From an uncultured virus (IMG/VR IMGVR_UViG_3300022752_000051) (Duplodnaviria > Heunggongvirae > Uroviricota > Caudoviricetes), in IMG/VR virus record IMGVR_UViG_3300022752_000051: a stretch of 20,000 nucleotides of DNA, one strand, 5' to 3'. The translations under genes were made by a program, and so were the position numbers. The notes beneath the pieces are model-generated. The model made no database searches. It had not been told where the DNA came from and saw nothing but the letters and a program-made list of their open reading frames with translations. Position 1 is the stretch's first letter. Every line of letters begins with the position of its first letter. Below are positions 1-19,274 of the stretch, one piece after another.

Positions 1-3000
1 TCTTATTTGCAAGAAACGAACTCTATCAGCTACTAAAATATCAATTACGTAGGTTGAACAAGCACATCTTGATGGTGTGACTGTTGGTGTGGTAGTATAT
101 GTTGGTGTTTGTGTTGTCGTTTGAGTATTGGTTATGGTATTGGTAGGTGTTTGTGTATTGGTTATGGTATTGGTAGGTGTTTGTGTATTTGTATTTGTTG
201 GTGATATTGTATTTGTTGGTGATATTGTATTTGTTGGTGATATTGTATTTGTTGGAGTTTCTGTAGTTGTAGGTGTTGAAGTATTCGTAGGTGTATTTGT
301 TGGAGTTTCTGATGGTGTGGATGTTGGTGTGGTTGTATTTCTAGGTGATCCAGTTGGTTCAGCAGTTCCTGTTTGAGTTGGTGTTGCGGTAAGTGTCGTT
401 GTTGTTGTAGGTGTAGGTGTTGTTGTTGTTGTAGGTGTAGGTGATGGAGTAGTTGGTGGAGTTTCGGTAGGTGTTTGAGTATTTGTTACTGAAGGACTTA
501 CAGAACTTGTAGGCGTGTTTGTTTGTGAAGGACTAATTGTGTTTGTTGGTGTTGGTGTTGATGTTTGAGTTGGTGAAACACTTGAAGATGGAGATTGAGT
601 AGGTGAGTTCGTTTGTGATATTGTATTTGTTGGTGTGACACTTTGAGTTTTTGTTGCCGAGGGTGTTGGATCTGTTACACAGGTTGGATAATCTTCTCTG
701 ATTGAAATACAATTTTGTGGACCACCGATAGGTGTGAAAGTTGCAGAACAAGCACAAATACTTATGGAGTATCCAATTGGAAAATATGGATTAGGTTGTG
801 TTGGGGTCAAGTTTACTAAATTATTATCACAATTTGTGTATCGGATGGAAGAAATATTACAATCAGAAACTAGTTCAATAAAATAAGTTTTACAAGCACA
901 CCTAGTAGTTGATGGTGTTGGGGTGAAAGTTGGACTTGTCGTTGGTGTTGGACTATTTGTTGGTGTAAATGTATTAGTTGGTGTGGCGCTTAATGTTGTT
1001 GTACTTGTTGGACTTTGTGTTTGTGAATTAGTGATAGTATTTGTCGGTGTTTGTGAATTAGTGATAGTATTTGTCGGTGTTTGTGTATTTGTCGGTGTTT
1101 GTGTGTTTGTTGAAGTATTTGTTGGTGTTGGGGTATTTGTTGGAGTTTCTGTAGTTGGAGGTGTTGAAGTATTCGTAGGTGTATTTGTTGGAGTTTCTGA
1201 TGGTGTGGATGTTGGTGTGGTTGTATTTCTAGGTGATCCAGTTGGTTCAGCGGTTTCTGTATTCGTTTGTGTTGGTGTATTTGTTGGTGTTTCTGTTGGT
1301 GTAAACGTATTTGATGGCGTATTTGTTGGAGTTTCTGTTGGAGTTAATGTTGATGTTACAGTAGAACTTATTGTATTCGTTGGAGTATTTGTAGAAGTTT
1401 TTGTTGTTGTATTTGTTGGTGTTGTTGTATTTGTTGGTGTTGGTGTAGGTTGACAGTAATTTCCACATTGTGAACCTGTGGTAATAGTTGGGGCAATTCC
1501 CGCCAGATCTGGATAGTTCTTCGAACAAATACTGATAGTTTGTCCATTACTTAAATTATTGATTCTCGGAATATTTGAACAATCAGTATAACCAATGGTA
1601 ATAGTACCTCTTGCGGTAATTGTATATTCAAAACAAGGTGGACACGTAACTGTTGGTGTCTGTGTAACTGTTGGTGTCTGTGTAACATCCGCTGTCTGTG
1701 GTGGAGTACCAGTATTACTTACAGTTTGTGTTGGAGAAACTGATGGTGTTGTAGTATTTGTTGGTGTTACTGATGGTGTTGTAGTACTTGTTGGAGTTTC
1801 TGTAGTTGGAGGCGTTGAAGTATTCGTAGGTGTATTTGTTGGAGTTTCTGATGGTGTGGATGTTGGTGTGGTTGTACTTCTAGGTGATCCAGTTGGTTCA
1901 GCGGTTTCTGTTTGAGTAGGTGTTGCTGTAAGCGTTTCAGTAGTAGTTGGTGTGAATGTATTTGTTGGGGTTTGAGTCGGACTAGTTGTTAAAGTCGGAG
2001 TATTTGTTGGGCAAGATGCTGGAACACATTCTTCGTTAGTAAGTATAATTGTGATTGGATAGGGTGAGATCCCATCTCCGTAACCAACGGGTACTGAACA
2101 TGAACAGAAACAAATCTGAAAATTTCTAGGAAAAACTCCACTTACCGTGTACTGATAACCATATATTTGTTGAGGTAGATTATTACAATCTGTATATTCT
2201 ATTATTGTAATATTGTTGTTTATAGCATCTGCATTTACTGTTACAGAATAAGTTTTACAAGAACATCTTGTTTGTGTAGGTGTAAATGTCGGAGATTGAC
2301 TTGGTGATAAAGATATTGATGGCGAAAGAGTTAGTGTGTTAGTTGGTGTCGGAGTTGGTGAACTTGTTCTTGTCGGTGTCAATGTTGGACATGGTACACA
2401 TCTATCACATATATTATCGAAAATATCTGTCGTTCTAAAGTCATAAGGTAAATTTATAAGATCACCTATCAACCAACATTGTCCATTGTACACAACACCT
2501 GTAGACGTTGTAATGTTCAAACCAGTTGGTATTGACACAACAATCGTTGTTCCAAAAATTACACAACAGTTTTGTGCAATGTAATTTGAAAAAACTAATG
2601 TTTCTGTTGGACTTACGGTTGGAGTTGTCGTATTAGATGGAGTTGTAGTTATTGTTGGTGTAGATGTTGGAAATGTTAGACATCCAGGACCAATTTCAGA
2701 AAAATAACCTCTGGGAGTTTCACAAGTCCCTTGGAAAGCTGGCACAGAACACGAACATATGTAATAACTCCAGTTTAATGGAAAAAATGTTAAGTTTAAT
2801 AAAGATTGTGCTTCAAGTACTATTAAAGTTCCAGAACAATCGGTATAACGAATTCTTGTCACACAATTTATTTTGGTAACTTCTATGTAATAAGTTTTAC
2901 AACTACAAGATGTTTTTGTTGGGGTTGGGGTCGGAGTATTCTGTGGGGCACCAGTATCGGATGGTGTGTTTGTTGGTGTTTCAGTTGGTGGTGGTGTTGG

Positions 3001-5463
3001 TAAATCTGTACCTGTTGGTGGTGGTGTTGGTGTTTCTGAATTTGTTGGTGTATTGGTAGGTGTTGGAGTATTTGTTTCAGGATTTGTTCTTGTTGGTGAT
3101 AAAGACAATGTAGGCGTTGTGGTAGGTGTTATTGTTGTAGTCGGCGTAGGTTGTGGACATGGTGAACCAATACTTTGACTACAAATGTTCGGTATTATTG
3201 AGGTGTATCGTATGTTGTAAGTCGTGAAATCTGTGGGTTCAATTATGTAATACCTGAAACCTTCAAAAACAACACCATCAACATTAAAATTGATGATAAT
3301 ACCGCTTGGAAGACTAATTACAATTGATTGAACAACATCTTCACAACAATTTTCAGCAATATAATTTATAAAAGTTGTTGTTGAGGTTGGTGTGTTCGGT
3401 GGTGTACTGTTTGGTGTTGCTGTTATAGTCGGTGTAACTGTGTTAGTTGGTGTAGGAGTTTTAAATTCCGTTGATGATGGTGATGGTGTTAGAGTTGATG
3501 TAGGAGTTACTGAAGGAGTTGGATTCAAACAGAAATAACCACAAATATTAAATCTTTGTATTATTCCTTGATTTCCTCCGACATTTTGTGGTTGTTGAGG
3601 ACTACATATCAATTCTACTGGATTAACTGATGACGACATCGAGAGTGTCGTCAAAATTCCATCACAATTTGTGTATACGTAAACTGACTGTGCACCAAAA
3701 CCAACCAAACTTATTTGCCATAAGTAACAAGGGATTGAAGTACCACCATCACATATTGGTTGAGTTGCATTTGGTGTTGGTGGAGGTGTTTGTGAATTTG
3801 TATTTGTCGGTGTGAAACTAGGTGTCTGACTTAATGATAAACTGATAGTTGGTGTTGTTGAAGATGTTGGTGTTGACCTTGGAGTTTCTGTCGGTATTGG
3901 TGTTTGAAAAGGTGTTAATGGAGGTGTTGATGTATTTGTCGGTGTCAAAGGGGGGGTTGCCGTTGGACTATTTGTGGGTAAAGGTGTGACACCTGAACTC
4001 CGTGACTGTGTAGGTGTTGGACTAAATGTTCTTGTTTGTGTTGGGGTTCTTGTGTTTGTACGTGTTGGTGTTTGGCTAGCGGTTATGGCGGGAGTACTTG
4101 TTTGAGTGGGTGTTGGGGTTTTAGTTGGAGTTTGAGTCGGTGGGATACAAAATAAACCACAAGTTCTGATAGGAGTTGCTGGGGTAAAACTACCAGTTCC
4201 TAAAAATGTCGGTATAATTCTCGAACAAACATAAGCAATCTCATTACTCGGGACATTTATAGAAACTTCAAGACCAGACGAACAATCTATTAAACTCCAC
4301 TGACCTGAACCTAAACCAGATTGACTAATTAAAAACTCAGTACAAGATTGAGAACCACCAATACAAGTTGCCAGAGGTGTGGAAGTTGGTGTTGGTGTGA
4401 TTGTTTGTGTACTCGTTCTAGTAACTGTTGGTGTTGTTGTTCTAGTTGGTGATGGTGTAAGAGTAGGACAAACTGAGGTATTACATATTGGAGAAACTTG
4501 AGATACCGTATAGTCTGATGGTGTAACTAAAGTACCAAGGAAACTTAATTGTGAACATGAACAAATACAATTTGAGTAATTTACTGGAAAAAATTGTGCT
4601 GGACTAGGCGATATAAACGATAATTGACCTTGACAATTTTGATATGTTATAAGTGTAATTCTGTTATTTGCAAAAATTCTAAAATTATAGGTTCTACAAT
4701 CACAAGTAATATTAGTGGGTGTTTGGCTCGGAGTTATTGGAGGTGTTGCTGTGTTTGAAGGTGTTATTGATGGTGATGGTGTTAATGTTGGTGTTGGTGG
4801 AATAGGTGGACATAAACTCAGATCACATGAACTATATTGTAAAATAGAATAATCGCTCGGTAAAAGATTTTGTGTTCCACCTATTATTGGTTGTGAACAA
4901 GAACAGAAACATTCAATTCTTCCTTGTGGAAAGTACGAAGGTGATGATATGAAACTAAACTGACCACTACAATTCGTATAACTAATTAAACTTACTTTGT
5001 TGTTTGATCTAATTGTAATTACATATGTGTTACAAGAACAAGAAGTTTTTGTTGGTGTAATACTTGGTGTAATATCTGGTGTTGTGGGTGGTGTTGACGT
5101 GTTTGTTGGTGTTGACGTGATTGTTGGAGTATTGGTAGGTGTTAAGGTTGGAGTTTCAGAAACTGGAAGTGTTGGCGGGTTTGAAGGTGTTATTGATGGT
5201 GATGGTGTTAAACTTATAGTTGGGGTGGGTGTGAGTAGAATTGGTAAACATAGATCTGAAATGATTTGGTAATTTGTTACATTGAACGCGGTTTGAAATG
5301 TACCTGATAAATAACTAAATTGAAATATTTCATTTGGTGCAAGGTTTCTATTTGTAACAGTCTCATTGTCACATCTATTATATGTTATTACAATAGTAAT
5401 ATTACTTATATTTTGTATTGTCATTTGACAACACCTACATGTTCCTAGTATACAATTACTCAT
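1..5463 (-). CDS. Giant (>1821 aa, 3'-truncated) modular protein of Cys-rich domains separated by Thr/Pro-rich mucin-like linkers; putative virion surface or fibre protein
   Basis: ATG at 5463-5461 (MSNCILGTCRCCQMTIQN...). I found no in-frame stop on reading down to base 1 (...PSRCACSTYVIDILVADRVRFLQIR). It is absent from the ORF track because its stop lies outside the window. The function is inference. Confidence 0.92.
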   Translation of the reverse strand, partial: MSNCILGTCRCCQMTIQNISNITIVITYNRCDNETVTNRNLAPNEIFQFSYLSGTFQTAFNVTNYQIISDLCLPILLTPTPTISLTPSPSITPSNPPTLPVSETPTLTPTNTPTITSTPTNTSTPPTTPDITPSITPTKTSCSCNTYVITIRSNNKVSLISYTNCSGQFSFISSPSYFPQGRIECFCSCSQPIIGGTQNLLPSDYSILQYSSCDLSLCPPIPPTPTLTPSPSITPSNTATPPITPSQTPTNITCDCRTYNFRIFANNRITLITYQNCQGQLSFISPSPAQFFPVNYSNCICSCSQLSFLGTLVTPSDYTVSQVSPICNTSVCPTLTPSPTRTTTPTVTRTSTQTITPTPTSTPLATCIGGSQSCTEFLISQSGLGSGQWSLIDCSSGLEVSINVPSNEIAYVCSRIIPTFLGTGSFTPATPIRTCGLFCIPPTQTPTKTPTPTQTSTPAITASQTPTRTNTRTPTQTRTFSPTPTQSRSSGVTPLPTNSPTATPPLTPTNTSTPPLTPFQTPIPTETPRSTPTSSTTPTISLSLSQTPSFTPTNTNSQTPPPTPNATQPICDGGTSIPCYLWQISLVGFGAQSVYVYTNCDGILTTLSMSSSVNPVELICSPQQPQNVGGNQGIIQRFNICGYFCLNPTPSVTPTSTLTPSPSSTEFKTPTPTNTVTPTITATPNSTPPNTPTSTTTFINYIAENCCEDVVQSIVISLPSGIIINFNVDGVVFEGFRYYIIEPTDFTTYNIRYTSIIPNICSQSIGSPCPQPTPTTTITPTTTPTLSLSPTRTNPETNTPTPTNTPTNSETPTPPPTGTDLPTPPPTETPTNTPSDTGAPQNTPTPTPTKTSCSCKTYYIEVTKINCVTRIRYTDCSGTLIVLEAQSLLNLTFFPLNWSYYICSCSVPAFQGTCETPRGYFSEIGPGCLTFPTSTPTITTTPSNTTTPTVSPTETLVFSNYIAQNCCVIFGTTIVVSIPTGLNITTSTGVVYNGQCWLIGDLINLPYDFRTTDIFDNICDRCVPCPTLTPTRTSSPTPTPTNTLTLSPSISLSPSQSPTFTPTQTRCSCKTYSVTVNADAINNNITIIEYTDCNNLPQQIYGYQYTVSGVFPRNFQICFCSCSVPVGYGDGISPYPITIILTNEECVPASCPTNTPTLTTSPTQTPTNTFTPTTTETLTATPTQTETAEPTGSPRSTTTPTSTPSETPTNTPTNTSTPPTTETPTSTTTPSVTPTNTTTPSVSPTQTVSNTGTPPQTADVTQTPTVTQTPTVTCPPCFEYTITARGTITIGYTDCSNIPRINNLSNGQTISICSKNYPDLAGIAPTITTGSQCGNYCQPTPTPTNTTTPTNTTTKTSTNTPTNTISSTVTSTLTPTETPTNTPSNTFTPTETPTNTPTQTNTETAEPTGSPRNTTTPTSTPSETPTNTPTNTSTPPTTETPTNTPTPTNTSTNTQTPTNTQTPTNTITNSQTPTNTITNSQTQSPTSTTTLSATPTNTFTPTNSPTPTTSPTFTPTPSTTRCACKTYFIELVSDCNISSIRYTNCDNNLVNLTPTQPNPYFPIGYSISICACSATFTPIGGPQNCISIREDYPTCVTDPTPSATKTQSVTPTNTISQTNSPTQSPSSSVSPTQTSTPTPTNTISPSQTNTPTSSVSPSVTNTQTPTETPPTTPSPTPTTTTTPTPTTTTTLTATPTQTGTAEPTGSPRNTTTPTSTPSETPTNTPTNTSTPTTTETPTNTISPTNTISPTNTISPTNTNTQTPTNTITNTQTPTNTITNTQTTTQTPTYTTTPTVTPSRCACSTYVIDILVADRVRFLQIR
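125..255. repeat. Short in-frame tandem repeats: 30 bp x2 (125-184) and 18 bp x3+ (190-255)
   Basis: GTATTGGTTATGGTATTGGTAGGTGTTTGT twice; TGTATTTGTTGGTGATAT three times plus a partial copy. Similar doublets occur near 1018-1080, 1646-1681 and 1739-1798. Confidence 0.9.
245..1902. repeat. Three dispersed ~119-bp near-identical direct repeats (245-363, 1133-1251, 1784-1902) inside the giant ORF
   Basis: Unit GTATTTGTTGGAGTTTCTGTAGTT...GGTGATCCAGTTGGTTCAGC with 1-4 mismatches between copies. Offsets of 888 and 651 are in frame. Encodes AEPTGSPRNTTTPTSTPSETPTNTPTNTSTPPTTETPTNT. Confidence 0.95.
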
Positions 5464-6633: not shown

Positions 6634-7002
6634 ATGAAAAACGAAGTTATACAAAATTTATTAATGGCACAAAACCAAATGAAAATATTTCATTGGCAAA
6701 CAGATTCTTATGCACAACATCAAGCGTTTGGTTCAATATATGACCAGTTGAGTGACTTAATTGATTCATTTGTTGAAGTCTGTATGGGAAAACACGGTAG
6801 ACCTCAATTTGAACAAGGATTGAATTTACCTTTGTTGGATTTGATGAGTGTGGATGTTATGGAATATATTGAGTCAGTAGTGGAATTCTTGATTTCATTG
6901 ACAAATGTATACGATCCAAGTTCCGATAGTGATCTATTAAATATAAGAGATGAAATGCTCGCAGAATTCAACAAACTCAAATATTTGCTTACTTTAAGCT
7001 AA
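6634..7002 (+). CDS. Ferritin/Dps-like four-helix protein (DUF5856-like)
   Basis: HWQT..YAQHQAFGSIYDQL..LID.FVE matches the Dps-type His/Asp/Glu pattern; C-terminal NIRDEML...NKLKYLLTL. Confidence 0.8.
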   Translation: MKNEVIQNLLMAQNQMKIFHWQTDSYAQHQAFGSIYDQLSDLIDSFVEVCMGKHGRPQFEQGLNLPLLDLMSVDVMEYIESVVEFLISLTNVYDPSSDSDLLNIRDEMLAEFNKLKYLLTLS

Positions 7003-8411
7003 TGAAAAAAATTATATTAGAAAGTGGTCTTCGGGATATTAAACAACTTGCTAGACGATATAAAAAGGCAAAAATTTATTATCACCAAGATTTAGACGGA
7101 GTTACTACTGCTTTAGGAATGAAAAAATACCTTGATGACAATGGTATCAAGGTAGTAGATTGTGAAATAATTCAGTACGGAGACAAAGAATTTTCAATAA
7201 AAAAACCTGATGCTAACGGAGATGTAATGCCCGTGTTAGTCGATTTTGCCCACGGAAAACCTATGTTTGTGATACACACAGACCACCATGATAGACAAGC
7301 TGGTGCTGAAGAAACAAAGTCGAAATACTTTGGACAATCCAGATCGAATGTGGCCACAATATCTCAGAAAGTGTCTCCTGTGGATATATTTCCAGACGAT
7401 GATATCAAATTGATATCAATGGTTGATTCAGCAGATTTTATGAGAAATGGTGTTACCACTGACGATGTTATCAATTACATTTTCAGATTAGATAAACAAA
7501 AAGAATTAAAAAGAAACAAAATATTATTAGGTTTGGTTTGTAACAAACTATTGTTAGCATTCAAAAACAAACCCGGATTTTTAGATGATCTAGTAATGAA
7601 TTGCCAACCTTCATTGCTTTCAATTTATAATCGGATCAAAAAGTTGATGATAAAACGTAATTATGTAAATCCTCAAATTTTACAAAACAATATGAAGGAC
7701 TACATTCAACAAATGCAGGACAGTCCGAATGTTAAGTTGGATGATTCAATTATTGTACAATACGGTGGAGGATCTATGATGAAACCTGGTTCGTATGATA
7801 GGTACACACCGTTTAAAAATCATCCAAATGCTGATTTTTTAGTGATCGCATGGCCAATGGGACTTGTTCAAGCAAGTTGTAATCCATTCAAAGAAGAGAG
7901 AGGTCTGAAAGGTGTAAACCTCGGAGAAATTGCACAAGAAGTAATCGGAAAATGGGAAAAACAATTAAAAGAAAGATTTGTTACTTTGTCAACCATAAAG
8001 TATGTCGCTGAAAAATCTGTCAACAATGAGTCCGTTGGATTTACATTCAAGGATTTTGCCGCACTTTTCGGTACAAAATATTCGGGTATCGTTTCTGACA
8101 ATCAGTTAGAAAACATTATACAAATTATGAAACGTCCATACTATAGTTTAAGTGAGGATGATTTTTTGAAATTGGATGATGTTAAGATAAGTTGTTGGGA
8201 TTTAATACAAGCTATGAGTGGTGGTCACAAATGTATAACAAACATTTCTGGTTTGAATTATTTGGGTAGAGCTAAAAGACCACCAGCGGGTGAGTATAGA
8301 TATGATCCTGAATCAGACGACACACCTTATGTGAAATTCACCAAAATGATACAAAACGAATTTGTGGAGAAACTAAAAGAAAAAATTAGAGAGAGTCAAA
8401 ATGGAAATTGA
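7002..8411 (+). CDS. DHH-family phosphoesterase
   Basis: Motifs HQDLDG, VDF, HTDHHD and VDSAD, plus C-terminal SGGHK typical of DHHA1. The start overlaps the upstream stop (TAATG). Confidence 0.85.
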   Translation: MKKIILESGLRDIKQLARRYKKAKIYYHQDLDGVTTALGMKKYLDDNGIKVVDCEIIQYGDKEFSIKKPDANGDVMPVLVDFAHGKPMFVIHTDHHDRQAGAEETKSKYFGQSRSNVATISQKVSPVDIFPDDDIKLISMVDSADFMRNGVTTDDVINYIFRLDKQKELKRNKILLGLVCNKLLLAFKNKPGFLDDLVMNCQPSLLSIYNRIKKLMIKRNYVNPQILQNNMKDYIQQMQDSPNVKLDDSIIVQYGGGSMMKPGSYDRYTPFKNHPNADFLVIAWPMGLVQASCNPFKEERGLKGVNLGEIAQEVIGKWEKQLKERFVTLSTIKYVAEKSVNNESVGFTFKDFAALFGTKYSGIVSDNQLENIIQIMKRPYYSLSEDDFLKLDDVKISCWDLIQAMSGGHKCITNISGLNYLGRAKRPPAGEYRYDPESDDTPYVKFTKMIQNEFVEKLKEKIRESQNGN

Positions 8412-10540: not shown

Positions 10541-10894
10541 ATGGAAATTAGAACAACGAAATTTGAGGAGGTTGAAAGTGAGTTGTCTCATTTAAGACCA
10601 ACACTTTTGGATAGATCCGCAACATACCAAGGAGCTTATCTCAATGATGTTTTGGTGGGAGTTGTTTCATATGTTGAACATCCCAATCATATTTACTTGG
10701 GGCATGCTTTTGTAGTTCCAGAACATCAAGGTAAAGGTATCTACAAACTTTTGTGGGAATATAGGAACATGAAAATAAAAGATCTTGGTAAACCATTAAT
10801 TGCACATTGCAATGTATCTAGTCTAAAACATTTCATTAATAATGGGTTCACAATTGATAAAGCGTTGTTTATGGTAGTAAAACAATCAATATGA
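10541..10894 (+). CDS. GNAT family N-acetyltransferase
   Basis: Motif A FVVPEHQGKGIYKLL; C-terminal F..NGF. Confidence 0.85.
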   Translation: MEIRTTKFEEVESELSHLRPTLLDRSATYQGAYLNDVLVGVVSYVEHPNHIYLGHAFVVPEHQGKGIYKLLWEYRNMKIKDLGKPLIAHCNVSSLKHFINNGFTIDKALFMVVKQSI

Positions 10895-11580
10895 AAATAG
10901 AAGCTCTGTTCATTTCTGACATACACCTAGGATCTAAAGGTTGTAATGCTGAATTATTATTGAAAACACTCAAGAAATACGAACCTGAAAATTTATTCAT
11001 TGTTGGTGATTTTATTGATGGTTGGTTACTCAAAAAAAGATTTTACTTCCCACAATCCCAAATAAATGTAATCAGAAAAATACTTTCATATTCTAAAAAC
11101 GGAACCAAAGTTCATTACATCACTGGTAATCATGATGAGTTTCTTAGACAGTATACACCTGTTGACTTTGGGAATATAAGTATATTAGATGAAATGGTTT
11201 GGAACGATTATTATATCACTCACGGAGATTTATATGATGGTGTTGTTCAGTTGAAGTGGTTAGGAAAACTCGGTAGTTGGGGATATGAATTGGCGATTTG
11301 GATAGACAGATCATTAAAAAAATTGGGTTATAAAAATTCTTTAAGTCAATTTTTAAAATATAAAGTTAAAGAAGCTGTCAAGTTTATCACCAGATTTGAA
11401 AAACAACTAGAATATCAAGCTGAAAGAAGAGGATGTAAAGGAGTTATATGTGGACACATACACACACCATCATTAGAAATCTCAAGAGAATTTAATTACA
11501 TTAATTGTGGAGATTGGATTGAAAATAATTCTTACATAGTTTACAACAAGGGTATATTTCACTTGGAATACTCAAATTAA
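10891..11580 (+). CDS. Calcineurin-like metallophosphoesterase, UDP-2,3-diacylglucosamine hydrolase (LpxH/YbbF)-like
   Basis: SDIHLG, GDFIDGW, GNHDE, HGDLYD, CGHIH and NCGDWIE. Confidence 0.88.
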   Translation: MKIEALFISDIHLGSKGCNAELLLKTLKKYEPENLFIVGDFIDGWLLKKRFYFPQSQINVIRKILSYSKNGTKVHYITGNHDEFLRQYTPVDFGNISILDEMVWNDYYITHGDLYDGVVQLKWLGKLGSWGYELAIWIDRSLKKLGYKNSLSQFLKYKVKEAVKFITRFEKQLEYQAERRGCKGVICGHIHTPSLEISREFNYINCGDWIENNSYIVYNKGIFHLEYSN

Positions 11581-11601
11581 TTATTATTTTTTTCATAAAA
11601 A

Positions 11602-11633
11602 TTTGGGATTCACAATTCTTTTGATTATCTTTG
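11602..11633 (+). promoter_or_regulatory. Bacteroidota sigma-A-type promoter (-33/-7)
   Basis: TTTG at 11602-11605, 20-nt spacer, TATCTTTG at 11626-11633; ATG at 11641. Confidence 0.75.
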
Positions 11634-11640
11634 TACCACT

Positions 11641-12261
11641 ATGAAAAAAAGTAAATTTTATGTCAAGGATAACCGTCCATTTAGTGTAAAAGCTGAAGAC
11701 TTTGGACAATCTCTTCTATTTTGGAAAGGTAGAAAAAAAGGAATGATCTATACTAGGGATATAGAGTGGAGTGATCTTTGTTTCATATTCTTTCCCAAAA
11801 ACTTTGCCGAAAAGTATGGTTATTTGGGTTCTATACCTGATGACAAATACTACGACCAAGCTATGGTTCCATTGGTTTTAGTTATGGACTATGAAGCAAA
11901 ACCTTGGTGGTGCCCTCGTTGGTTTCTCAGGTTCCTTCATGTCTTCGGTAACGACAAGTCTATTGTAAGGGTTCGTAATTGGAAGTTACATAATTTACAT
12001 AAAAGATTGACCAAAGGAATTACATTCTACGATTATAAAACAAAGTGGAGTTGGTATGATTTGAGAATTTCAGTTGCAGCACCAAGATACATTCAAGATT
12101 TGGCGGACGCTATTGAAGATCGTTATTACAAAGTTGGTAAAAGGAAAGACACTCTCAAACAAATTCAGACATTAGAGCCTGATTTTGATAAAACACATAT
12201 GACTACAAAGGATCTTGATGATTATTTAAAAAATTTAACCAATGGACTACCAAATTCTTAA
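11641..12261 (+). CDS. Hypothetical phage protein (Trp/aromatic-rich)
   Basis: 206 aa ORF directly after a promoter and overlapping the RNA ligase start; no family recognised. Confidence 0.8.
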   Translation: MKKSKFYVKDNRPFSVKAEDFGQSLLFWKGRKKGMIYTRDIEWSDLCFIFFPKNFAEKYGYLGSIPDDKYYDQAMVPLVLVMDYEAKPWWCPRWFLRFLHVFGNDKSIVRVRNWKLHNLHKRLTKGITFYDYKTKWSWYDLRISVAAPRYIQDLADAIEDRYYKVGKRKDTLKQIQTLEPDFDKTHMTTKDLDDYLKNLTNGLPNS

Positions 12262-13267
12262 AAGATATGAACTGAATGGACTTGTTAGGTCACAAACACA
12301 TCCCATATTACCTCTTATAATTTGGAACTACACCGAGAAGGTTCAATACGAATCCCTTTGGGACGAGGTAACTCTGATGTGCCGAGGATTGGTCACATGG
12401 ACAGATACTGGTGAAATCTGTGCTAGGCCATTCCGTAAATTCTTCAATTTGGAGGAAGGTAAACATACACCAACTTCAAACTTCGAAGTCTTTGAAAAAA
12501 TAGACGGGTCTTTAATAATTGCATTTTTTGTTTGGGATCGTTGGTTCGTTGCATCCAGAGGTTCTTTCGTCTCCGATCAGGCGGTAGCAGGTCAAAAACT
12601 TTTAGATTCACTGGATACTTCTGGTCTTGACGACGAGTACACATACTTGTTCGAGTTAACCGCCCCCTGGAATCGTATAGTGGTTGACTATGGAAATGAG
12701 GATAAACTCACCCTTTTGGGGTCAATCAGAACACATGACGGACAGGAGATGGACTACGAAATTTTACATCAAAACTCCAAAGATCTTGGATGTGATATAA
12801 CTTCTAGATACGACGGAATTTTGGATTATTCCGAACTCAAAGGAAAAATTTCCGACAATGCGGAAGGGTTCGTAGTTCGTTTCTCAAACGGTAACCGGGT
12901 TAAAATAAAAGGTGAAGAATATTTAAGACTTCACCGAATAATGACTAACCTTTCTACTACCGCAATTTGGGAAGTTCTTTCTAATGGTGGTGATGTTCTA
13001 TCTACACTTACTGATGTTCCTGATGAATTTTACGATAAGATTCACCAATACTCAAATGAACTGATGGATAAATACATATCATTAGAAAATGAATATCATT
13101 TCATATTTAAGATTCTTGGTAGATCTGATGATTTTGAATTCCGAGCTAGCTTTGCTGAGCGTGCAAAGAGGTATAAATACCCAGCAATCTTATTCAAGAT
13201 GTATGATGATAAGGATTATTCGGGTTTGATTTGGAAAATAATTAAACCAGAATTTGAAAAATTGTAA
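12242..13267 (+). CDS. RNA ligase, T4 Rnl1/RnlA family
   Basis: NYT..VQY...WD......CRGLV, RPF.KFFN, motif I EKIDGSL, YLFE, motif IV EGFVV and motif V KIKGEEY. Confidence 0.92.
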   Translation: MDYQILKRYELNGLVRSQTHPILPLIIWNYTEKVQYESLWDEVTLMCRGLVTWTDTGEICARPFRKFFNLEEGKHTPTSNFEVFEKIDGSLIIAFFVWDRWFVASRGSFVSDQAVAGQKLLDSLDTSGLDDEYTYLFELTAPWNRIVVDYGNEDKLTLLGSIRTHDGQEMDYEILHQNSKDLGCDITSRYDGILDYSELKGKISDNAEGFVVRFSNGNRVKIKGEEYLRLHRIMTNLSTTAIWEVLSNGGDVLSTLTDVPDEFYDKIHQYSNELMDKYISLENEYHFIFKILGRSDDFEFRASFAERAKRYKYPAILFKMYDDKDYSGLIWKIIKPEFEKL

Positions 13268-13284
13268 TCTACCACTTATCTTTA
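13253..13284 (+). promoter_or_regulatory. Bacteroidota-type promoter (one mismatch)
   Basis: TTTG at 13253-13256, 20-nt spacer, TATCTTTA at 13277-13284; ATG at 13296. Confidence 0.6.
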
Positions 13285-13295
13285 CAAAAAAAAAT

Positions 13296-13415
13296 ATGGA
13301 ATACGCAATTTTGATGTGGATGGGATTCGCACTTTGGTTTTACGCAGGAGTTCGAGTTGGAATCACATATAGTTTGAAAAAAAAAATCAATGAAAAAGAG
13401 AATTTACTTAGATGA
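13296..13415 (+). CDS. Small single-pass membrane protein (39 aa)
   Basis: MEYAILMWMGFALWFYAGVRVGITYSLKKKINEKENLLR*, a hydrophobic helix with a basic tail, directly after a promoter and A-rich leader. Confidence 0.6.
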   Translation: MEYAILMWMGFALWFYAGVRVGITYSLKKKINEKENLLR

Positions 13416-13839
13416 TGTGAGAACACCCAAGGATGAAAATTGGGAGGTTGTCAGGAATTATGACCAATTTGTAGAAATTGTCACGAATACAGGTTTGGAA
13501 AATATCGAACTTATTTCTTTGGATCACGATTTGGGTGATACGGCTATGAATGAGTATTTTACTAATGTGAGTCCAAACTACAAATTGGATTATTCAAACA
13601 TCCTTGAAAAGACTGGAATGGATTGTGCTAAGTGGTTGGTCAATCACTATCTTGACAATTACATTACTCAAGAGAGTAGGTCAGAAAAAAAATCATCTGG
13701 TATCGTTTTTCCACTAGTTTATACTCATTCTGCCAATCCAATTGGATCCGCCAACATTATGGGTTACATTAACAATTTTTGGATGAACGAGGGTCAACCG
13801 CAATCTTGTGTTCGAGTGAATATTCCACACTTTGTTTGA
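13390..13839 (+). CDS. Cyclic-phosphate processing receiver (cREC) domain protein
   Basis: IYLDDVR.P..W.VVRNYD.F, ISLDHDLG, TG.DCAKWL and HSANP.G match this family, which is known from RNA-repair gene neighbourhoods. Confidence 0.85.
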   Translation: MKKRIYLDDVRTPKDENWEVVRNYDQFVEIVTNTGLENIELISLDHDLGDTAMNEYFTNVSPNYKLDYSNILEKTGMDCAKWLVNHYLDNYITQESRSEKKSSGIVFPLVYTHSANPIGSANIMGYINNFWMNEGQPQSCVRVNIPHFV

Positions 13840-13849
13840 GATTTATTTG

Positions 13850-13857
13850 TATATTTG
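13850..13857 (+). promoter_or_regulatory. Bacteroidota-type -7 element TATATTTG
   Basis: Matches TAnnTTTG 12 nt before ATG 13870; the -33 element is not at canonical spacing. Confidence 0.55.
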
Positions 13858-13869
13858 TAAAAAAAAACG

Positions 13870-14502
13870 ATGAAACTGACCCTCAACCCGAATCAAAAAC
13901 TTTGGTTTACTAGTGACACACACTTTAACCATGCGAATATATGTTCTGCAACCACCCAGTGGAAAGATCCTCAAACGGTACGAAATTTCGAGTCTTTGAG
14001 TAAGATGAATGACACACTGGTTAATAACATCAACGAGTTGGTTATGCCAGATGACATCTTGATCCATAACGGTGATTGGAGTTTCGGTGGTTTTGAATCA
14101 ATTGAAAACTTTAGAAAAAGGTTAATTTGTCAAAACATCCACCTAGTATTGGGTAATCATGATCATCATATTGCTCGTAATAAACAAGATTGTCAATCTT
14201 TGTTTGTTTCAGTCAGCAAATATATTGAGTTGAGTGTCTCACATTATGTTGGCAACACTCTAGTTACCAATGAGTTTGTATTATCACATTATCCTATTGC
14301 TAGTTGGAACAATTTGGCCAGAGGTACTATCCATTTACACGGTCACGTTCATTTACCACAAAACAAAAGAATCGGACCTGGTAAAATGATGGATATTGGT
14401 GTTGACGGAAACAATTTGTATCCTATATCGACCAGTGAAATCTTGAAGTTGATGAAAAATCAACCCATCAAGTCAATGATCGCATACGACCATCATGAGT
14501 AA
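13870..14502 (+). CDS. Calcineurin-like metallophosphoesterase
   Basis: FTSDTHFNH, GD, LGNHD, SHYP, HLHGHVH and DIGVD. Confidence 0.92.
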   Translation: MKLTLNPNQKLWFTSDTHFNHANICSATTQWKDPQTVRNFESLSKMNDTLVNNINELVMPDDILIHNGDWSFGGFESIENFRKRLICQNIHLVLGNHDHHIARNKQDCQSLFVSVSKYIELSVSHYVGNTLVTNEFVLSHYPIASWNNLARGTIHLHGHVHLPQNKRIGPGKMMDIGVDGNNLYPISTSEILKLMKNQPIKSMIAYDHHE

Positions 14503-14534
14503 AGATATCAGAAATACCTCTTAATAATAAATAA

Positions 14535-14969
14535 ATGGATAATTTAAAAAAAACAAATTTGAACCCCTCGAACAAGAATTTATTCTTGGTTAGAGGGGTT
14601 CCGTAATAACCTGGATCGGGTAAAAGTACCTTTGCGAAAACATTGGGTTGTCCAGTATTTGAGGCTGATCAATATTTCATTGATTCAGAAACTGGGGAAT
14701 ACAAATTTGACGCATCGAAAATAAAGTTAGCACATAATTGGTGCAAACTACGTGTTGAGCACTCTATGGAAGATGGAGTGGGTAAAATCGCTGTTTCAAA
14801 TACATTCACTCAAGAATGGGAAATGAAACCCTATCTGGATCTTGCACAAAAATTTGGGTATACGGTCTTTTCAATCATCGTCGAAAATCGGCACGTAGGA
14901 ACAAATATTCACGGTTGTCCTGAAGAAAAAGTTGAACAAATGCGTAATCGTTTCGAAATAAAACTCTGA
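14535..14969 (+). CDS. P-loop polynucleotide-kinase-like protein (AAA_33-like) interrupted by two in-frame TAA codons; recoded gene or pseudogene
   Basis: ATG 14535 reads MDNLKKTNLNPSNKNLFLVRGVP-*-*-PGSGKSTFAKTLGCPVFEADQYF...AHNWC...VSNTFTQEWEM.PY...ENRH...NIHG.P. Removing 9 nt restores RGVPGSGKST (141 aa). The track ORF from 14643 lacks the Walker A motif. Confidence 0.88.
14561..14601 (+). other. Strong mRNA stem-loop ending at the CCG codon preceding the tandem stops
   Basis: GAACCCCTC-G-AAC-AAGAA-TTTA-TTCTT-G-GTT-A-GAGGGGTTC: 9+3+5 bp with one mismatch and one bulge. Confidence 0.85.
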
Positions 14970-14972
14970 AAA

Positions 14973-15296
14973 ATGGAAAAGACAGTATTTTTTAATCTGA
15001 TTGAACAATTAGAAAAACATGACCATAAGATTCATGACTTATATCGTTTGGGTGTTGATTTAATCGATTTGAATGACCCATTGAATAGTGTGATTAAAGA
15101 TTTAATGGTCGAATGTTTTGGTATTGATGGTGAAGATATGATTTCTTGGTGGTGTTATGAAAAAGACTTTGGTAAAAGAGAGGATCTGACTTGTCAAGAC
15201 AAAGATGGCAATTTAATTTGTCAAGATTTGGACGGATTGTACGAATATATTCAAACTTTAAAAAATGAAAAAAATAGAAAAAACAGTTTGTGTTAA
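14973..15296 (+). CDS. Hypothetical acidic phage protein
   Basis: 107 aa ORF tightly packed in the operon; ISWWCYE.DFG and ..LYEYI pattern. Confidence 0.8.
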   Translation: MEKTVFFNLIEQLEKHDHKIHDLYRLGVDLIDLNDPLNSVIKDLMVECFGIDGEDMISWWCYEKDFGKREDLTCQDKDGNLICQDLDGLYEYIQTLKNEKNRKNSLC

Positions 15297-15525
15297 TTTT
15301 GAACATAAAAACGGAAAAGCAAGTTTCAATATCAAATTGGATCCGTCAGACACTTCGACTACTTTGTCTGATATAAGGATGATTTTGACAGGAGCTGTCG
15401 CCCTAACGATCAAATTGTCTGAAAATCAACCAGAAGCAATTAGAAAGGTGATTGATTTTCTTCAAGAAGATTTTGTGGATGGAAATTCGTTCGAGGATGG
15501 AAAATTATTGGTTCCAGAATTTTGA
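15265..15525 (+). CDS. Hypothetical protein
   Basis: 86 aa ORF with an A-rich start, filling the gap before the next promoter. Confidence 0.75.
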   Translation: MKKIEKTVCVNFEHKNGKASFNIKLDPSDTSTTLSDIRMILTGAVALTIKLSENQPEAIRKVIDFLQEDFVDGNSFEDGKLLVPEF

Positions 15526-15551
15526 AGTTTCAAATTAGTTCACTATATTTG
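15521..15551 (+). promoter_or_regulatory. Bacteroidota-type promoter (-33/-7)
   Basis: TTTG at 15521-15524, 19-nt spacer, TATATTTG at 15544-15551; ATG 4 nt later. Confidence 0.75.
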
Positions 15552-15555
15552 CTAT

Positions 15556-16287
15556 ATGAAAACTCTATTTTTGGGTGATACCCACGGACGTTCCGTTTGG
15601 AAAAAAATTGTCGAGAAAGAAAATCCTGACAGAGTTATTTTCATTGGTGATTACTTTGATAGTTTTGATGTTCCAGGTCTAGACCAAATACACAACTTCA
15701 AGGAAATAGTTGACTTCAAAAAGTCAAGTGATAAAGAGGTGGTCTTACTTGTTGGTAATCACGACCTTCACTACATGCACATCGGTGAAACATACTCAGG
15801 GTTTCAACCCCGGTTACAATTTGACATATCCGCAGTACTGTCTGAAAACCTAGAACAACTTCAAATGGCTTATTCGTTTGACAAATTTCTTTGTACACAT
15901 GCCGGGGTTAGTCATGTTTGGATGAATAATACATTTGGAATGTATGGTTGGGATTGTGAAAATCTTGTTGAGAAGTTGAATGATATGTTCAAATTCAAAC
16001 CAAGAGCTTTCTGTTTCTCTGGTTGGGATCCTTACGGCGATGATGTGACTCAATCTCCTGTTTGGATTCGTACAAAAGCACTGTTAGCGTCTAATAAAAG
16101 AAGAGTCAAAGAAAATTCCATAAAAAAGACTTTTGTTCAGATTGTGGGTCATACTGAAATCAGTTCAATCGATATGAAAGCGATGAACAAAAGTATGGGT
16201 GGTAAATACTATATGATCGACGCTTTACATGTCGGACAATATTTAATTTTTGATGGTAACCTTAAAGTCGGAACTTATGCTGAATGA
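15556..16287 (+). CDS. Calcineurin-like metallophosphoesterase
   Basis: GDTHG, GDYFD, GNHD, THAG, WIR and QIVGHT. Confidence 0.92.
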   Translation: MKTLFLGDTHGRSVWKKIVEKENPDRVIFIGDYFDSFDVPGLDQIHNFKEIVDFKKSSDKEVVLLVGNHDLHYMHIGETYSGFQPRLQFDISAVLSENLEQLQMAYSFDKFLCTHAGVSHVWMNNTFGMYGWDCENLVEKLNDMFKFKPRAFCFSGWDPYGDDVTQSPVWIRTKALLASNKRRVKENSIKKTFVQIVGHTEISSIDMKAMNKSMGGKYYMIDALHVGQYLIFDGNLKVGTYAE

Positions 16288-16555
16288 TAAAAAATTTGAT
16301 ACCGCCTATTTTGACTGTATGAGGGAGTTGTATTTACACGCAACTCCCTCGGCAGACTTTGATCAATTACTCAAAGATGCTCCATTGAATGAGGATGGAC
16401 AAAAAGTAATAGATTACAATAGTCACACTATACCAGAACCTGAATTCGAATTCATCGTCAAAGATGTAATGAAACGTCACAAAATTAAGAAACCACTTGA
16501 TGTCGTTCGTTTTAGAAATTCTGTTTTATTGGGTGCTAGTCCAAAATTTTCTTAG
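16277..16555 (+). CDS. Hypothetical phage protein
   Basis: Likely start ATG 16277 (MLNDKKFD...CMRELY..ATPSADFD.L...LLGASP). Confidence 0.75.
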   Translation: MLNDKKFDTAYFDCMRELYLHATPSADFDQLLKDAPLNEDGQKVIDYNSHTIPEPEFEFIVKDVMKRHKIKKPLDVVRFRNSVLLGASPKFS

Positions 16556-17414: not shown

Positions 17415-17508
17415 CTTCATTGGTGAAATAACCCTAAAACTTTTTGTAACCGCATTAGGCTTTACCGTATTACTTGGTATTGCTCTTGCATTATCAACTA
17501 TATTTTAA
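17398..17508 (+). CDS. Small membrane peptide (36 aa)
   Basis: MTQILNFIGEITLKLFVTALGFTVLLGIALALSTIF* has an A-rich start and fills the gap exactly. Confidence 0.55.
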   Translation: MTQILNFIGEITLKLFVTALGFTVLLGIALALSTIF

Positions 17509-17515
17509 AAATACT

Positions 17516-18121
17516 ATGAAAAAAATATCATTACTTTTAATTCTCCTGTTTGTTTCAATTATAGCATTCTCTCAATCTAAAAGGGATAGTGTTTATGTAA
17601 AGAATGCCATTTTCGAGATGGTTTATTCTGAGACTTTGGAACAACCAAAATGGGTCAAATACACGGTTCAGTGTTCAGAAAATACGGTTTCTCGTAAGGG
17701 TCTTGATTTCTATACCGAAAAAACCATTCATACATCAAACGGAGATGATTATGCAAAAAATGAATATGATAAAGGTCATATGGCACCAGCGGCAGCATTT
17801 GGATGTGACATTGTTTTACTCAAAATGACGTTTACGTATTTGAATTCAGCCTTACAGCATCAGTCACTCAACAGAGGCCCTTGGAAGGAACTGGAGGAAT
17901 ACGAAAGGACACTCGCAAAATCAACAAATGATGTCCAGGTTCATATTGTTTTGGAGTTTTCACCAAATCCATCAAAAGTACCGGGAGGAGCTTCAATACC
18001 CATAGGATTTTATAAAACTATATCATCAACTAAATTAGGGTTAAAATCGTGTTATTATTTCAGAAATGTTGATCCAGGAAAAAACAAAACGTTCCACCAA
18101 TTCCACACAAATTGTAATTAA
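17516..18121 (+). CDS. Secreted DNA/RNA non-specific endonuclease (NucA/Serratia-type His-Me fold)
   Basis: Signal peptide MKKISLLLILLFVSIIAFS|Q; P.WV.Y, DKGHMAPA, TF.YLN..LQ...LNRGPWKELE and IP.GFYK. Confidence 0.92.
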   Translation: MKKISLLLILLFVSIIAFSQSKRDSVYVKNAIFEMVYSETLEQPKWVKYTVQCSENTVSRKGLDFYTEKTIHTSNGDDYAKNEYDKGHMAPAAAFGCDIVLLKMTFTYLNSALQHQSLNRGPWKELEEYERTLAKSTNDVQVHIVLEFSPNPSKVPGGASIPIGFYKTISSTKLGLKSCYYFRNVDPGKNKTFHQFHTNCN

Positions 18122-18836: not shown

Positions 18837-19274
18837 ATGGAAAAAAAAGTAGAAGCAGGACATTCAATCAAGGTTCATTATGTCGGAACCACAAAAAATG
18901 GCAACGAGTTTGATAACTCATACAAGAGAGGTAGTACTCTAGATTTCGAAGTCGGATCTGGGCAAATGATTCCTGGGTTTGATAACGGAGTGGTTGGTAT
19001 GGTTGTAGGTGAAATGAAACAAGTAGAAATACCACCTAGTGAAGGTTATGGTGATCGTAGACCAGACGCAACTGTTCAGGTACTCAGAGAAAACTTTAAT
19101 AACTTAGATCAGTTTAACAAGGGTGATATGGTTCAAGGATCAACTCACGATGGAAGACCAATCCAAGCAATTATTGAAGATATCACTGAAGAATACGTGG
19201 TTTTAGATATGAACCATCCTCTGGCTGGTGAGACCTTAATTTTCGATATTGAACTTGTTGATATTGTATCTTAG
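18837..19274 (+). CDS. FKBP-type peptidyl-prolyl cis-trans isomerase (SlyD/SlpA-like, no His-rich tail)
   Basis: VHYVG...G.EFDNS, F.VG.GQMIPGFD, IPP.EGYG and DMNHPLAGETL.FDIELV. Confidence 0.95.
   Translation: MEKKVEAGHSIKVHYVGTTKNGNEFDNSYKRGSTLDFEVGSGQMIPGFDNGVVGMVVGEMKQVEIPPSEGYGDRRPDATVQVLRENFNNLDQFNKGDMVQGSTHDGRPIQAIIEDITEEYVVLDMNHPLAGETLIFDIELVDIVS

Follow-up and report, generated by a model that had tools for sequence, protein, structure and literature searches.

We think it likely that a P-loop kinase of an uncultured tailed phage, whose gene carries two stop codons within its Walker A motif, is produced as a single polypeptide through a programmed translational hop of +9, and that the skipped nucleotides originated as an insert giving immunity to a homing endonuclease. 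The gene lies in IMG/VR record IMGVR_UViG_3300022752_000051, of which a stretch of 20,000 nucleotides (nt), termed the window, was analyzed; all positions are those of this whole stretch. Positions 14598–14630 read GTT CCG TAA TAA CCT GGA TCG GGT AAA AGT ACC, that is V P * * P G S G K S T, where asterisks denote stops. The two TAA codons at 14604–14609 are the sole interruption of a frame running from ATG 14535 to TGA 14967–14969. The part upstream of them (open reading frame 1, ORF1) comprises an N-terminal extension of about 10 codons, strand β1 and the first half of the Walker A motif, and its last codon is the take-off codon of the proposed hop. The GxxxxGK[ST] motif of the kinase is predicted to be complete only once the gap is hopped.

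An earlier note on this DNA, made by a model from the letters alone, had drawn attention to this Pro-stop-stop-Pro arrangement, in which 9 extra nt keep the frame and are bounded by two synonymous Pro codons, and had judged the gene to be otherwise intact. Sequence and reading frame bear out both statements: there is no further stop, and the matches to AAA_33 and PHROG 2071 lie after the gap. The post-gap part by itself matches Pfam AAA_33 from profile position 8 with 28.2 bits (cut-off 27), and the kinase matches PHROG 2071 ‘ATPase’ with E 7.6e-37. Stop-free alleles have 52 alignment columns conserved to at least 90%, and the window kinase retains 50 of them. A search of PDB sequences with the kinase gave no match, megablast of 12000–16500 against GenBank phages likewise gave none, and tblastn of the kinase in cultured phages found relatives of at most 54% identity. 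The genomic context, together with the names that depositors gave to relatives, suggests polynucleotide-kinase activity. The window contains the hallmarks of bypassing, namely a take-off codon followed by a stop, a landing triplet to which the same tRNA could re-pair, a canonical motif on joining, and a 5′ stem-loop at the take-off site.

How general is this arrangement? The same device is present at the same codon in about 80 distinct relatives on contigs from IMG/VR and the Joint Genome Institute (JGI), so it is no private decay of the window; the earlier note had held the combination of features hard to explain by simple decay. Its parts are the N-terminal extension of about 10 codons, a covarying hairpin, a take-off codon, a stop, a gap of 5, 6, 7, 9 or 11 nt, and then GGN. 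A protein-guided scan of IMG/VR, from which the best 80 of 379 kinase relatives were kept by kinase similarity alone, found seven loci with a stop at exactly the codon seen in the window (L031, L033, L051, L052, L058, L064 and L007); the closest relatives of the window kinase (78% identity) have no stop at the take-off site. The set was then extended by DNA-pattern scans, in all of which R-G-x had to precede the take-off codon and GxGK had to follow the gap. With a CYN landing triplet all 62 IMG/VR matches were true, on contigs with 56 different dataset numbers, and with the landing triplet left free 66 of 69 were true. The pattern for a 9-nt gap gave four or five true cases among 20 matches, while none of seven matches with a 3-nt gap and none of three with a 12-nt gap was real. 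When the take-off codon was left free, T4-Pnk-like kinases of a separate lineage emerged, which read RGLQ*QGSGKS and have CAG TGA CAG at the site. Variable-gap scans of IMG/VR and of JGI metagenome contigs, the latter covering one sub-lineage, added gaps of 5 nt (tgaca), 7 nt (tgagcta, tgagtta, taaatca) and 11 nt. After de-duplication there were 62 unique elements in the first tally and 72 by a stricter detector, whose non-greedy regular expression misses seven of ten Gln-type elements and one 9-nt element. Elements were found in at least four kinase subfamilies.

Three further candidates, with gaps of 10, 13 and 14 nt (L457, L499 and L463), were judged to be chance matches on account of weak or atypical hairpins and an unrelated P-loop protein, and are excluded from the counts. 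In a pattern scan of genome contigs the rows inspected among the at least 120 matches listed all look like chance, and no host or prophage case came from them. A longer kinase family (about 270–290 residues after the gap, containing ...IHSTDD...) has the same device behind ‘ITRPSQILIIMRGVP’ (loci L081, L084, L093, L103, L104, L117, L133, L134, L139 and L213, with L465, L488 and L503 having 5-nt gaps); at several of these loci the upstream frame is open without an ATG.

The lengths of the gaps are informative. Among the 72 elements the gap is 5 nt in seven, 6 nt in 52, 7 nt in eight, 9 nt in four and 11 nt in one. In 16 elements it is therefore not a multiple of three, and the intact downstream frame (at least 60 open codons from a G.GK[ST] start) is out of phase with ORF1. 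Readthrough, suppression or a change of code cannot make the kinase there because the 5-, 7- and 11-nt gaps are out of phase; a jump of exactly the gap length can, judging from the frames, and these gaps would therefore be bridged only by bypassing. Skipping the gap yields RG[VLI][P/Q]G[SAC]GK[ST] every time, the same motif that the stop-free relatives have. Decoding of the stops by readthrough, by a suppressor tRNA or under an altered code would give a Walker A motif with two or three extra residues. In its favour, 56 of the 72 gaps are multiples of three, but it would lengthen the invariant GxxxxGK[ST] spacing, and the out-of-frame gaps in effect already refute it. TAA, TAG and TGA are all represented, moreover, and the window has two stops consecutively. 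The internal stops are real stops because TAA ends 13 of the 22 long ORFs in the window, the terminal stop of the kinase is of the same type as the internal one in 23 of 51 tallied elements, and no tRNA gene was found in the window. For the window itself, with its in-frame 9-nt gap, exclusion of other modes of recoding comes from the relatives.

Which nucleotides are constrained around the gap, and which are not, is also instructive. The take-off codon stands directly before TAA, TAG or TGA in all 72 elements, and is CCN in 69 and CAG in three. The type of stop drifts freely (TGA 36, TAA 29 and TAG 8 among 73 candidates, one of which was excluded later), as does the middle codon of the 9-nt gaps, which is ATA, AGA, GTG, GTA or, in the window, TAA. 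The triplet before GGN is restricted to those compatible with the take-off tRNA. In the 72-element set it is CCN (26), CUN (28), UCA (5), ACA (8) or UUA (2) where the take-off codon is CCN, and CCN or TCA in the 9-nt gaps; where the take-off codon is CAG the landing triplet is CAG in all three, so that take-off and landing co-vary in the Gln lineage. These triplets could form two or three pairs, G-U counted, with a UGG (Pro) or CUG (Gln) anticodon. The earlier note had described a hop between two Pro codons; given the CUN, UCA, ACA and UUA landings, a Pro codon is not needed for landing. As a side observation, TGA is enriched as the internal stop, occurring in 27 of 62 elements against 24 of 152 long-ORF ends at the same loci; the excess may be relevant to which release factor is outcompeted.

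The constraint on the landing triplet bears equally on the idea of a two-piece protein, in which the 23-residue product of ORF1 and that of ORF2, made by termination and reinitiation, would assemble, as happens with NrdA and topoisomerase subunits that endonucleases have split. Genes divided by homing endonucleases into halves that reassemble are indeed described in 10.1101/2022.08.31.505936. Here, however, the break would lie within the P-loop and one piece would have just 23 residues, the choice of landing triplet would go unaccounted for, and there is no start codon after the gap; the first in-frame ATG, GTG or TTG of the window is the TTG at 14643, past the entire Walker A motif. We consider such assembly very unlikely.

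The hairpin is the most distinctive part of the device. In the window an outer stem of 9 bp pairs GAACCCCTC (14561–14569) with GAGGGGTTC (14593–14601), and an inner stem of 6 bp pairs CAAGAA (14573–14578) with TTCTTG (14583–14588). Pairing extends to the first C of CCG. The hairpin predicted by the earlier note at 14561–14601 thus stands, as does its end at CCG, but it has 15 predicted pairs and not 17. The 106-nt stretch has a minimum free energy (MFE) of −28.8 kcal/mol compared with −19.0 ± 3.3 for shuffled sequences, of which none in 200 was as stable, and a covariance model matches the window at 14552–14603 with E 5.5e-10. An Rfam search at 14300–14800 gave sub-threshold chance matches only.

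All real elements share a hairpin of about 41 nt, its 3′ arm formed by the Arg-Gly-Val/Leu/Ile codons and its 5′ arm lying in the N-terminal extension. That the 5′ arm derives from added sequence, as the earlier note had it, is supported by the position of the Arg of RG, which lies 17–19 codons past the ATG in most gap-bearing elements and 7–9 codons past it in most of 47 unique stop-free relatives. Over a 51-nt region the mean MFE of 62 elements is −24.0 (sd 2.7, range −30.8 to −18.1), while that of 47 stop-free controls is −3.8 (sd 2.1, minimum −12.6), so that the two ranges do not overlap. In 44 of the 62 the pairing ends on the first base of the take-off codon, and in the remainder no more than 2 nt from it. 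When the 5′ half of one element is joined to the 3′ half of a second, the chimeras have a mean fold energy of −13.7.

The two arms covary. The alignment analyzed consists of 44 matches (E ≤ 1e-4) to a covariance model built from 20 of them, with the long kinase family and the Gln lineage left out; an earlier alignment containing reverse-strand and weak matches was discarded. In it 93.3% of cells pair (76.9% in shuffles), there are 105 double-sided changes (37 in shuffles), neither value being reached in any of 500 shuffles, and the covariation score is 0.507 compared with 0.08–0.17 with slid partners; these figures overstate independence, as the alignment was fitted to the model and the sequences are related. 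Compensatory changes of pair type are seen in the synonymous third bases of the Arg, Gly and Val/Leu codons, as well as in the first base of the Val/Leu/Ile codon. The extension peptide is constrained by its role as a hairpin arm, which would mask any separate signal from the nascent peptide. Where pairs of the outer helix depart from Watson-Crick, they are G-U when read on the mRNA, and in 58 of 72 elements the hairpin folds more stably in the mRNA sense than on the complementary strand; both observations point to an RNA function on the kinase mRNA. We suggest that this function is the stimulation of hopping. The 3′ arm contains AGAGGGG, which is Shine-Dalgarno-like and ends 2 nt before the take-off codon, and GGG is the Gly codon at this place in 50 of 62 gap-bearing elements and in 9 of 47 stop-free relatives. 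A contribution of this run to rRNA pairing is conceivable, and is inseparable here from its role in the stem.

These features can be assembled into a mechanism. The ribosome would translate ORF1 from the ATG at 14535 until peptidyl-tRNA-Pro occupied CCG (14601–14603) with the stop TAA in the A site. Proline ahead of a stop slows termination. At this point the 3′ arm of the hairpin would be inside the ribosome and the 5′ arm would just have emerged; re-formation of the stem at the mRNA exit could then draw the mRNA forward by a few nucleotides. The peptidyl-tRNA would leave CCG and re-pair 9 nt downstream with CCT (14610–14612), the re-pairing fixing the frame, and decoding would continue at GGA to give the Walker A motif as ...LVRGVP-GSGKST... 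Pairing of mRNA at the exit as a driver of forward movement is under discussion for T4 gene 60 (10.1101/2024.12.09.627546). The hop from CCG to CCT aided by a 5′ hairpin is the core of what the earlier note had proposed, and comparison with about 80 relatives having the device, the covarying arms, the 5-, 7- and 11-nt gaps and the CAG/CAG pair speaks strongly for it. The same comparison provides the conserved insert and hairpin covariation among relatives that the note had wished to see.

The insert itself is authentic. Contigs from two other DNA runs of different studies cross it without indels (X4, 14334–14830, and X5, 14451–14926), giving it the support from independent assemblies that the earlier note had sought in reads. 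Fourteen DNA runs contain at least 0.82 of the sampled words of the stretch, and are labelled as freshwater, lake-water or drinking-water metagenome, with one unlabelled. A sequencing or assembly artefact, or a recent mutation private to this genome, is already refuted by these runs and by recurrence of the device on contigs with 56 different dataset numbers. An RNA-library contig, X15 (14503–14653), likewise carries the insert without indels, and is relevant to the idea that the message is mended at the RNA level. On that account 5–11 nt would be cut out of the mRNA beside the hairpin and the ends religated, conceivably by the neighbouring RNA ligase and end-healing enzymes. The conserved hairpin does adjoin the gap, and the window kinase is set in an RNA-repair cluster with an Rnl1-type ligase (12242–13267), a cREC_REC protein and phosphoesterases. 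Yet X15 has the full insert, although a contig may drop rare variants and DNA may be its source; many gap-bearing loci have other neighbours, including NADAR, IMPDH, an ATP-grasp protein, RNase T and a peptidase; and splicing does not account for the constraint that relates landing triplet to take-off codon. We know of no mRNA editing of the excise-and-religate kind, and give this alternative little credence. RNA runs X16 to X20 contain small shares of the words of the stretch only, and X16 does not reach the site.

What is the origin of the gap? On a neighbour-joining tree of kinase bodies (constructed in Biopython without support values, so that gains and losses are not counted from it), alleles with the gap are scattered throughout among stop-free ones, and several sister pairs are near-identical downstream. 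Four pairs (L064/L026, L130/L061, L146/L060 and L098/L079) constitute presence/absence polymorphisms, in which the sisters are 88–94% identical downstream and unrelated upstream. L064 and L026 are 94% identical downstream, with homology ending inside the β1 codons. L064 has about 960 extra bases upstream, which on the opposite strand (1995–2879 of L064, minus) encode a protein of 294 residues that combines three NUMOD3 motifs with a TnsA-like endonuclease domain and for which the PHROGs labels are ‘endonuclease’ and ‘homing endonuclease’. Upstream sequence of at least 600 nt is available for 51 unique non-Gln elements; in 28 of these a NUMOD3 plus TnsA-like gene ends about 50–80 nt upstream of the kinase ATG, divergently oriented in 24 and in the same orientation in four. 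In the unbiased set of 80 loci an endonuclease homologue is present in six of the seven gap-bearing loci, while a full-length homologue is present in none of the 73 stop-free loci, one of which has a weak 52-residue NUMOD match elsewhere. The nuclease can be exchanged; locus L092 has a GIY-YIG plus NUMOD3 endonuclease in its place, and the Gln lineage a LAGLIDADG endonuclease with a zinc ribbon. In cultured phages no homologue of the NUMOD3/TnsA-like endonuclease was found beyond one weak partial match.

The comparison of loci argues that the gap is probably the leftover self-immunity insert of a free-standing homing-endonuclease cassette. The cassette would have placed the insert in the conserved DNA that encodes Walker A in its own allele, probably as protection from cleavage by its own endonuclease. 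The data point to this origin, and give no support to the regulatory purpose put forward in the earlier note, a low or conditional output of kinase in an anti-defence operon. From about 14505 the leader of the window is homologous to that of endonuclease-bearing cassettes (..ATC.RGAATACCTCTAAYAATAAATAW ATG; aligned with L225, L100, L114, L083 and L064), but lacks the promoter-like box and endonuclease gene seen upstream in relatives, having instead the end of the phosphoesterase gene. The window allele thus appears to have lost the endonuclease and promoter, with retention of leader, extension, hairpin and gap. It is not alone in this; in about 20 elements, the window included, no endonuclease was found while the hairpin is at full strength. 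Because the gap persists in these elements, gap-bearing alleles may have been kept as resistant to the endonucleases of co-infecting phages. At two loci the endonuclease gene is degenerating while the bypass device beside it is intact: in L122 the C-terminal 39 residues of a NUMOD3/TnsA-like gene survive at about 1180–1296, and at 3225–3500 of L446 there is a 91-residue ORF with a LLIGIIDGDGSI stretch, LAGLIDADG-like by eye and matching no Pfam family. Separately, one 270-kb IMG/VR record (G001) carries two Gln-type devices (CAG TGA CAG) 191 kb apart, L445 and L447, each behind a 269-residue LAGLIDADG plus zinc-ribbon endonuclease, the final approximately 45 nt of which overlap with the beginning of the kinase extension, read in a different frame; the kinase bodies differ downstream.

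The main alternative to the hop is that the kinase is dead. The insert would then have killed a dispensable gene, with the hairpin serving the cassette otherwise, for instance as a transcriptional insulator for the opposite strand or as a DNA-level feature, and recombination refreshing the downstream frames. Several observations are in keeping with this. Gap-bearing and gap-free alleles are intermixed and recombine, so that gene conversion could partly refresh intact downstream frames. An A-rich tract 5′ of the hairpin gives the complementary strand a terminator-like look, although neither strand of the window gave a match in a simple terminator scan. In DNA run X5, one contig has 52 other letters in place of the stretch between 14480 and 14961; the entire kinase gene is thus missing from a close relative of the phage, and therefore the kinase is dispensable and cassette-like in the population. 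Finally, the ratio of nonsynonymous to synonymous substitution (dN/dS; pairwise NG86, pairs with dS of 0.05–1.5) is somewhat higher among gap-bearing alleles (median 0.30, 214 pairs) than among stop-free alleles (0.20, 413 pairs), mixed pairs giving 0.25 (555 pairs); dS is near saturation in most pairs, so these are rough estimates.

A value of 0.30 is nonetheless far below 1, and this comparison, called for in the earlier note, goes in favour of a functional protein. The downstream frame is open with a G.GK[ST] start in all 72 unique elements, where the detector itself demanded 60 open codons, and in an unfiltered scan all 62 matches are open through the 70 residues shown. A dead gene would account neither for the restriction of the landing triplet while stop and middle codon drift, nor for the CAG-to-CAG co-variation, nor for the hairpins that persist beside no detectable endonuclease and that favour the mRNA sense. 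We therefore judge a dead kinase unlikely, if less so than the other alternatives.

Other points weigh against the proposed hop. We infer the hop and its efficiency, together with the refolding of the hairpin, the part played by the Shine-Dalgarno-like G-run and the immunity function, by comparing sequences. The landing triplet is fully cognate to the take-off tRNA in just 29 of 72 elements, and the CUN, UCA, ACA and UUA landings need G-U pairs or a P-site mismatch. The 20 kb of the window contain no endonuclease homologue, so that the immunity origin is drawn from relatives. The RNA evidence is one RNA-library contig, which may reflect carried-over DNA. Lastly, if the host is a member of the Bacteroidota, a contribution from Shine-Dalgarno pairing is doubtful. 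That host is our guess from distant similarity to huge uncultured phages and from the TAnnTTTG boxes upstream of many cassettes, which we take to resemble Bacteroidota promoters.

The features of the site and of its neighbourhood are collected in Table 1. The kinase belongs to an RNA-end-processing cluster at 10891–16287. A 469-residue protein at 7002–8408 has matches solely in uncultured phages of 634–642 kb. At the other end of the window, an ORF of more than 1821 codons occupies 1–5463 on the minus strand and runs off the window; it has no Pfam match, and its distal part at 1–2000 shows a very strong GC skew of 0.55–0.58.

Table 1. Features of the kinase site and neighbouring genes in the window
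Feature	Position	Strand	Basis
Leader, between phosphoesterase stop codon (14500–14502) and kinase ATG	14503–14534	+	
ORF1, 23 codons (MDNLKKTNLNPSNKNLFLVRGVP)	14535–14603	+	Translation; N-terminal length comparison
5′ stem-loop	14561–14601	+	Fold, covariance model, covariation across relatives
G-rich AGAGGGG (Arg and Gly codons, first base of Val)	14592–14598	+	3′ arm of hairpin
Take-off codon CCG (Pro)	14601–14603	+	
In-frame stops TAA TAA, first part of 9-nt coding gap	14604–14609	+	
Landing triplet CCT (Pro), last 3 nt of gap, directly 5′ of resume codon GGA	14610–14612	+	
ORF2, resuming at GGA (GSGKST...), remainder of AAA_33/PNK-like kinase, stop TGA 14967–14969	14613–14969	+	
Calcineurin-like phosphoesterases (three)	10891–11580, 13870–14502, 15556–16287		
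Rnl1-type RNA ligase	12242–13267		
cREC_REC ‘cyclic-phosphate processing receiver’ protein	13390–13839		
Non-specific DNA/RNA endonuclease	17474–18121		
FKBP isomerase	18837–19274		

Efficient natural bypassing has so far comprised T4 gene 60 and its homologues, the byps of yeast mitochondria, and a candidate in phage Hau3. The literature searched, which left most subscription journals outside its scope, contained no account of bypassing in a kinase or a Walker A motif. We consider it rather probable that the kinase device constitutes a second class of natural bypassing, independent of the first and much more widespread, in which endonucleases of at least three nuclease families have spread a compact cassette, as a self-immunity insert, through P-loop kinase genes of uncultured phages, most of them from freshwater, and in which an endonuclease-resistant allele persists once the endonuclease is lost. 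Such a family would differ in architecture, being much simpler, and would offer dozens of natural variants. The variation in gaps, stops, landings and Pro or Gln tRNAs constitutes a ready mutational series for take-off drive, pull distance and the need for P-site pairing, and if the proposal is true the rules of short-range ribosome hopping are directly testable with it. It also suggests that recoding as immunity may be general for free-standing homing endonucleases, which could disrupt their own target within an essential motif while the gene survives. Gene callers can be expected to split or truncate such kinases, which are thus probably mis-annotated across viral metagenomes.

How does the device relate to known recoding systems? 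Low-level hopping of tRNA over stop codons in E. coli has reportedly been observed at about a percent, in synthetic or accidental settings (Weiss et al. 1987; Kane et al. 1992). It shares with the kinase device hops of +5 and +6 and in-frame hops of two codons, re-pairing at a nearby similar codon, and a stop or hungry codon in the A site; the kinase arrangement, in contrast, is natural and conserved, and has a dedicated RNA structure. The programmed +1 frameshift site of prfB, encoding release factor RF2, has AGGGGG, a 3-nt spacer and CUU UGA, so that in both a G-rich Shine-Dalgarno-like run lies a few nucleotides 5′ of a P-site codon, and this codon precedes a stop. This is a resemblance only. 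The prfB shift is +1 on a slippery codon, whereas in the kinase genes the +1 frame is closed and the shift is 5–11 nt.

A closer parallel is the terminase of the Streptomyces phage Hau3, for which passages of PMC10732093 describe candidate bypassing of 10-nt inserts, found in 3 of 100 terminase genes analyzed. There too the gap is short, the A-site codon is slow to decode, the insert interrupts a conserved protein junction, and the proposed 5′ stimulators are a stem-loop and a flanking internal Shine-Dalgarno sequence. The trigger in Hau3 is a rare UUA sense codon tied to host physiology, in place of a stop, and those passages describe no linkage to an endonuclease.

The nearest counterpart in both organization and natural history is T4 gene 60 with its MobA element. 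In the parts of 10.1101/2022.08.31.505936 that bear on it, the gene 60 cassette belongs to MobA, protects against self-nicking, outlives or swaps its endonuclease, and ‘remains unique’. As far as that account goes, the two systems share a take-off codon followed by a stop, a landing triplet for the same peptidyl-tRNA, added sequence on the N-terminal side, a linked free-standing homing endonuclease, and a gap within a highly conserved coding stretch. In both the endonuclease is often lost or replaced by one of another nuclease family while the bypass stays, and in both the insertions are recent, with near-identical alleles that have and lack the cassette. Nevertheless the genes are unrelated in sequence, a P-loop kinase here and a topoisomerase (Toprim domain) in T4, and the kinase gene is not split into two functional ORFs as the host gene in T4 is. 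The gap of 5–11 nt has no room for the take-off stem-loop contained within the approximately 50 nt of gene 60, while the 5′ stem-loop is strongly conserved and covarying, that of gene 60 being reported in the same source as not conserved. The tRNA is Pro or Gln rather than Gly, and the endonucleases are of NUMOD3 plus TnsA-like, GIY-YIG and LAGLIDADG types rather than the HNH type of MobA. Thus the kinase device works like the gene 60/MobA cassette, but is not a homologue of it.

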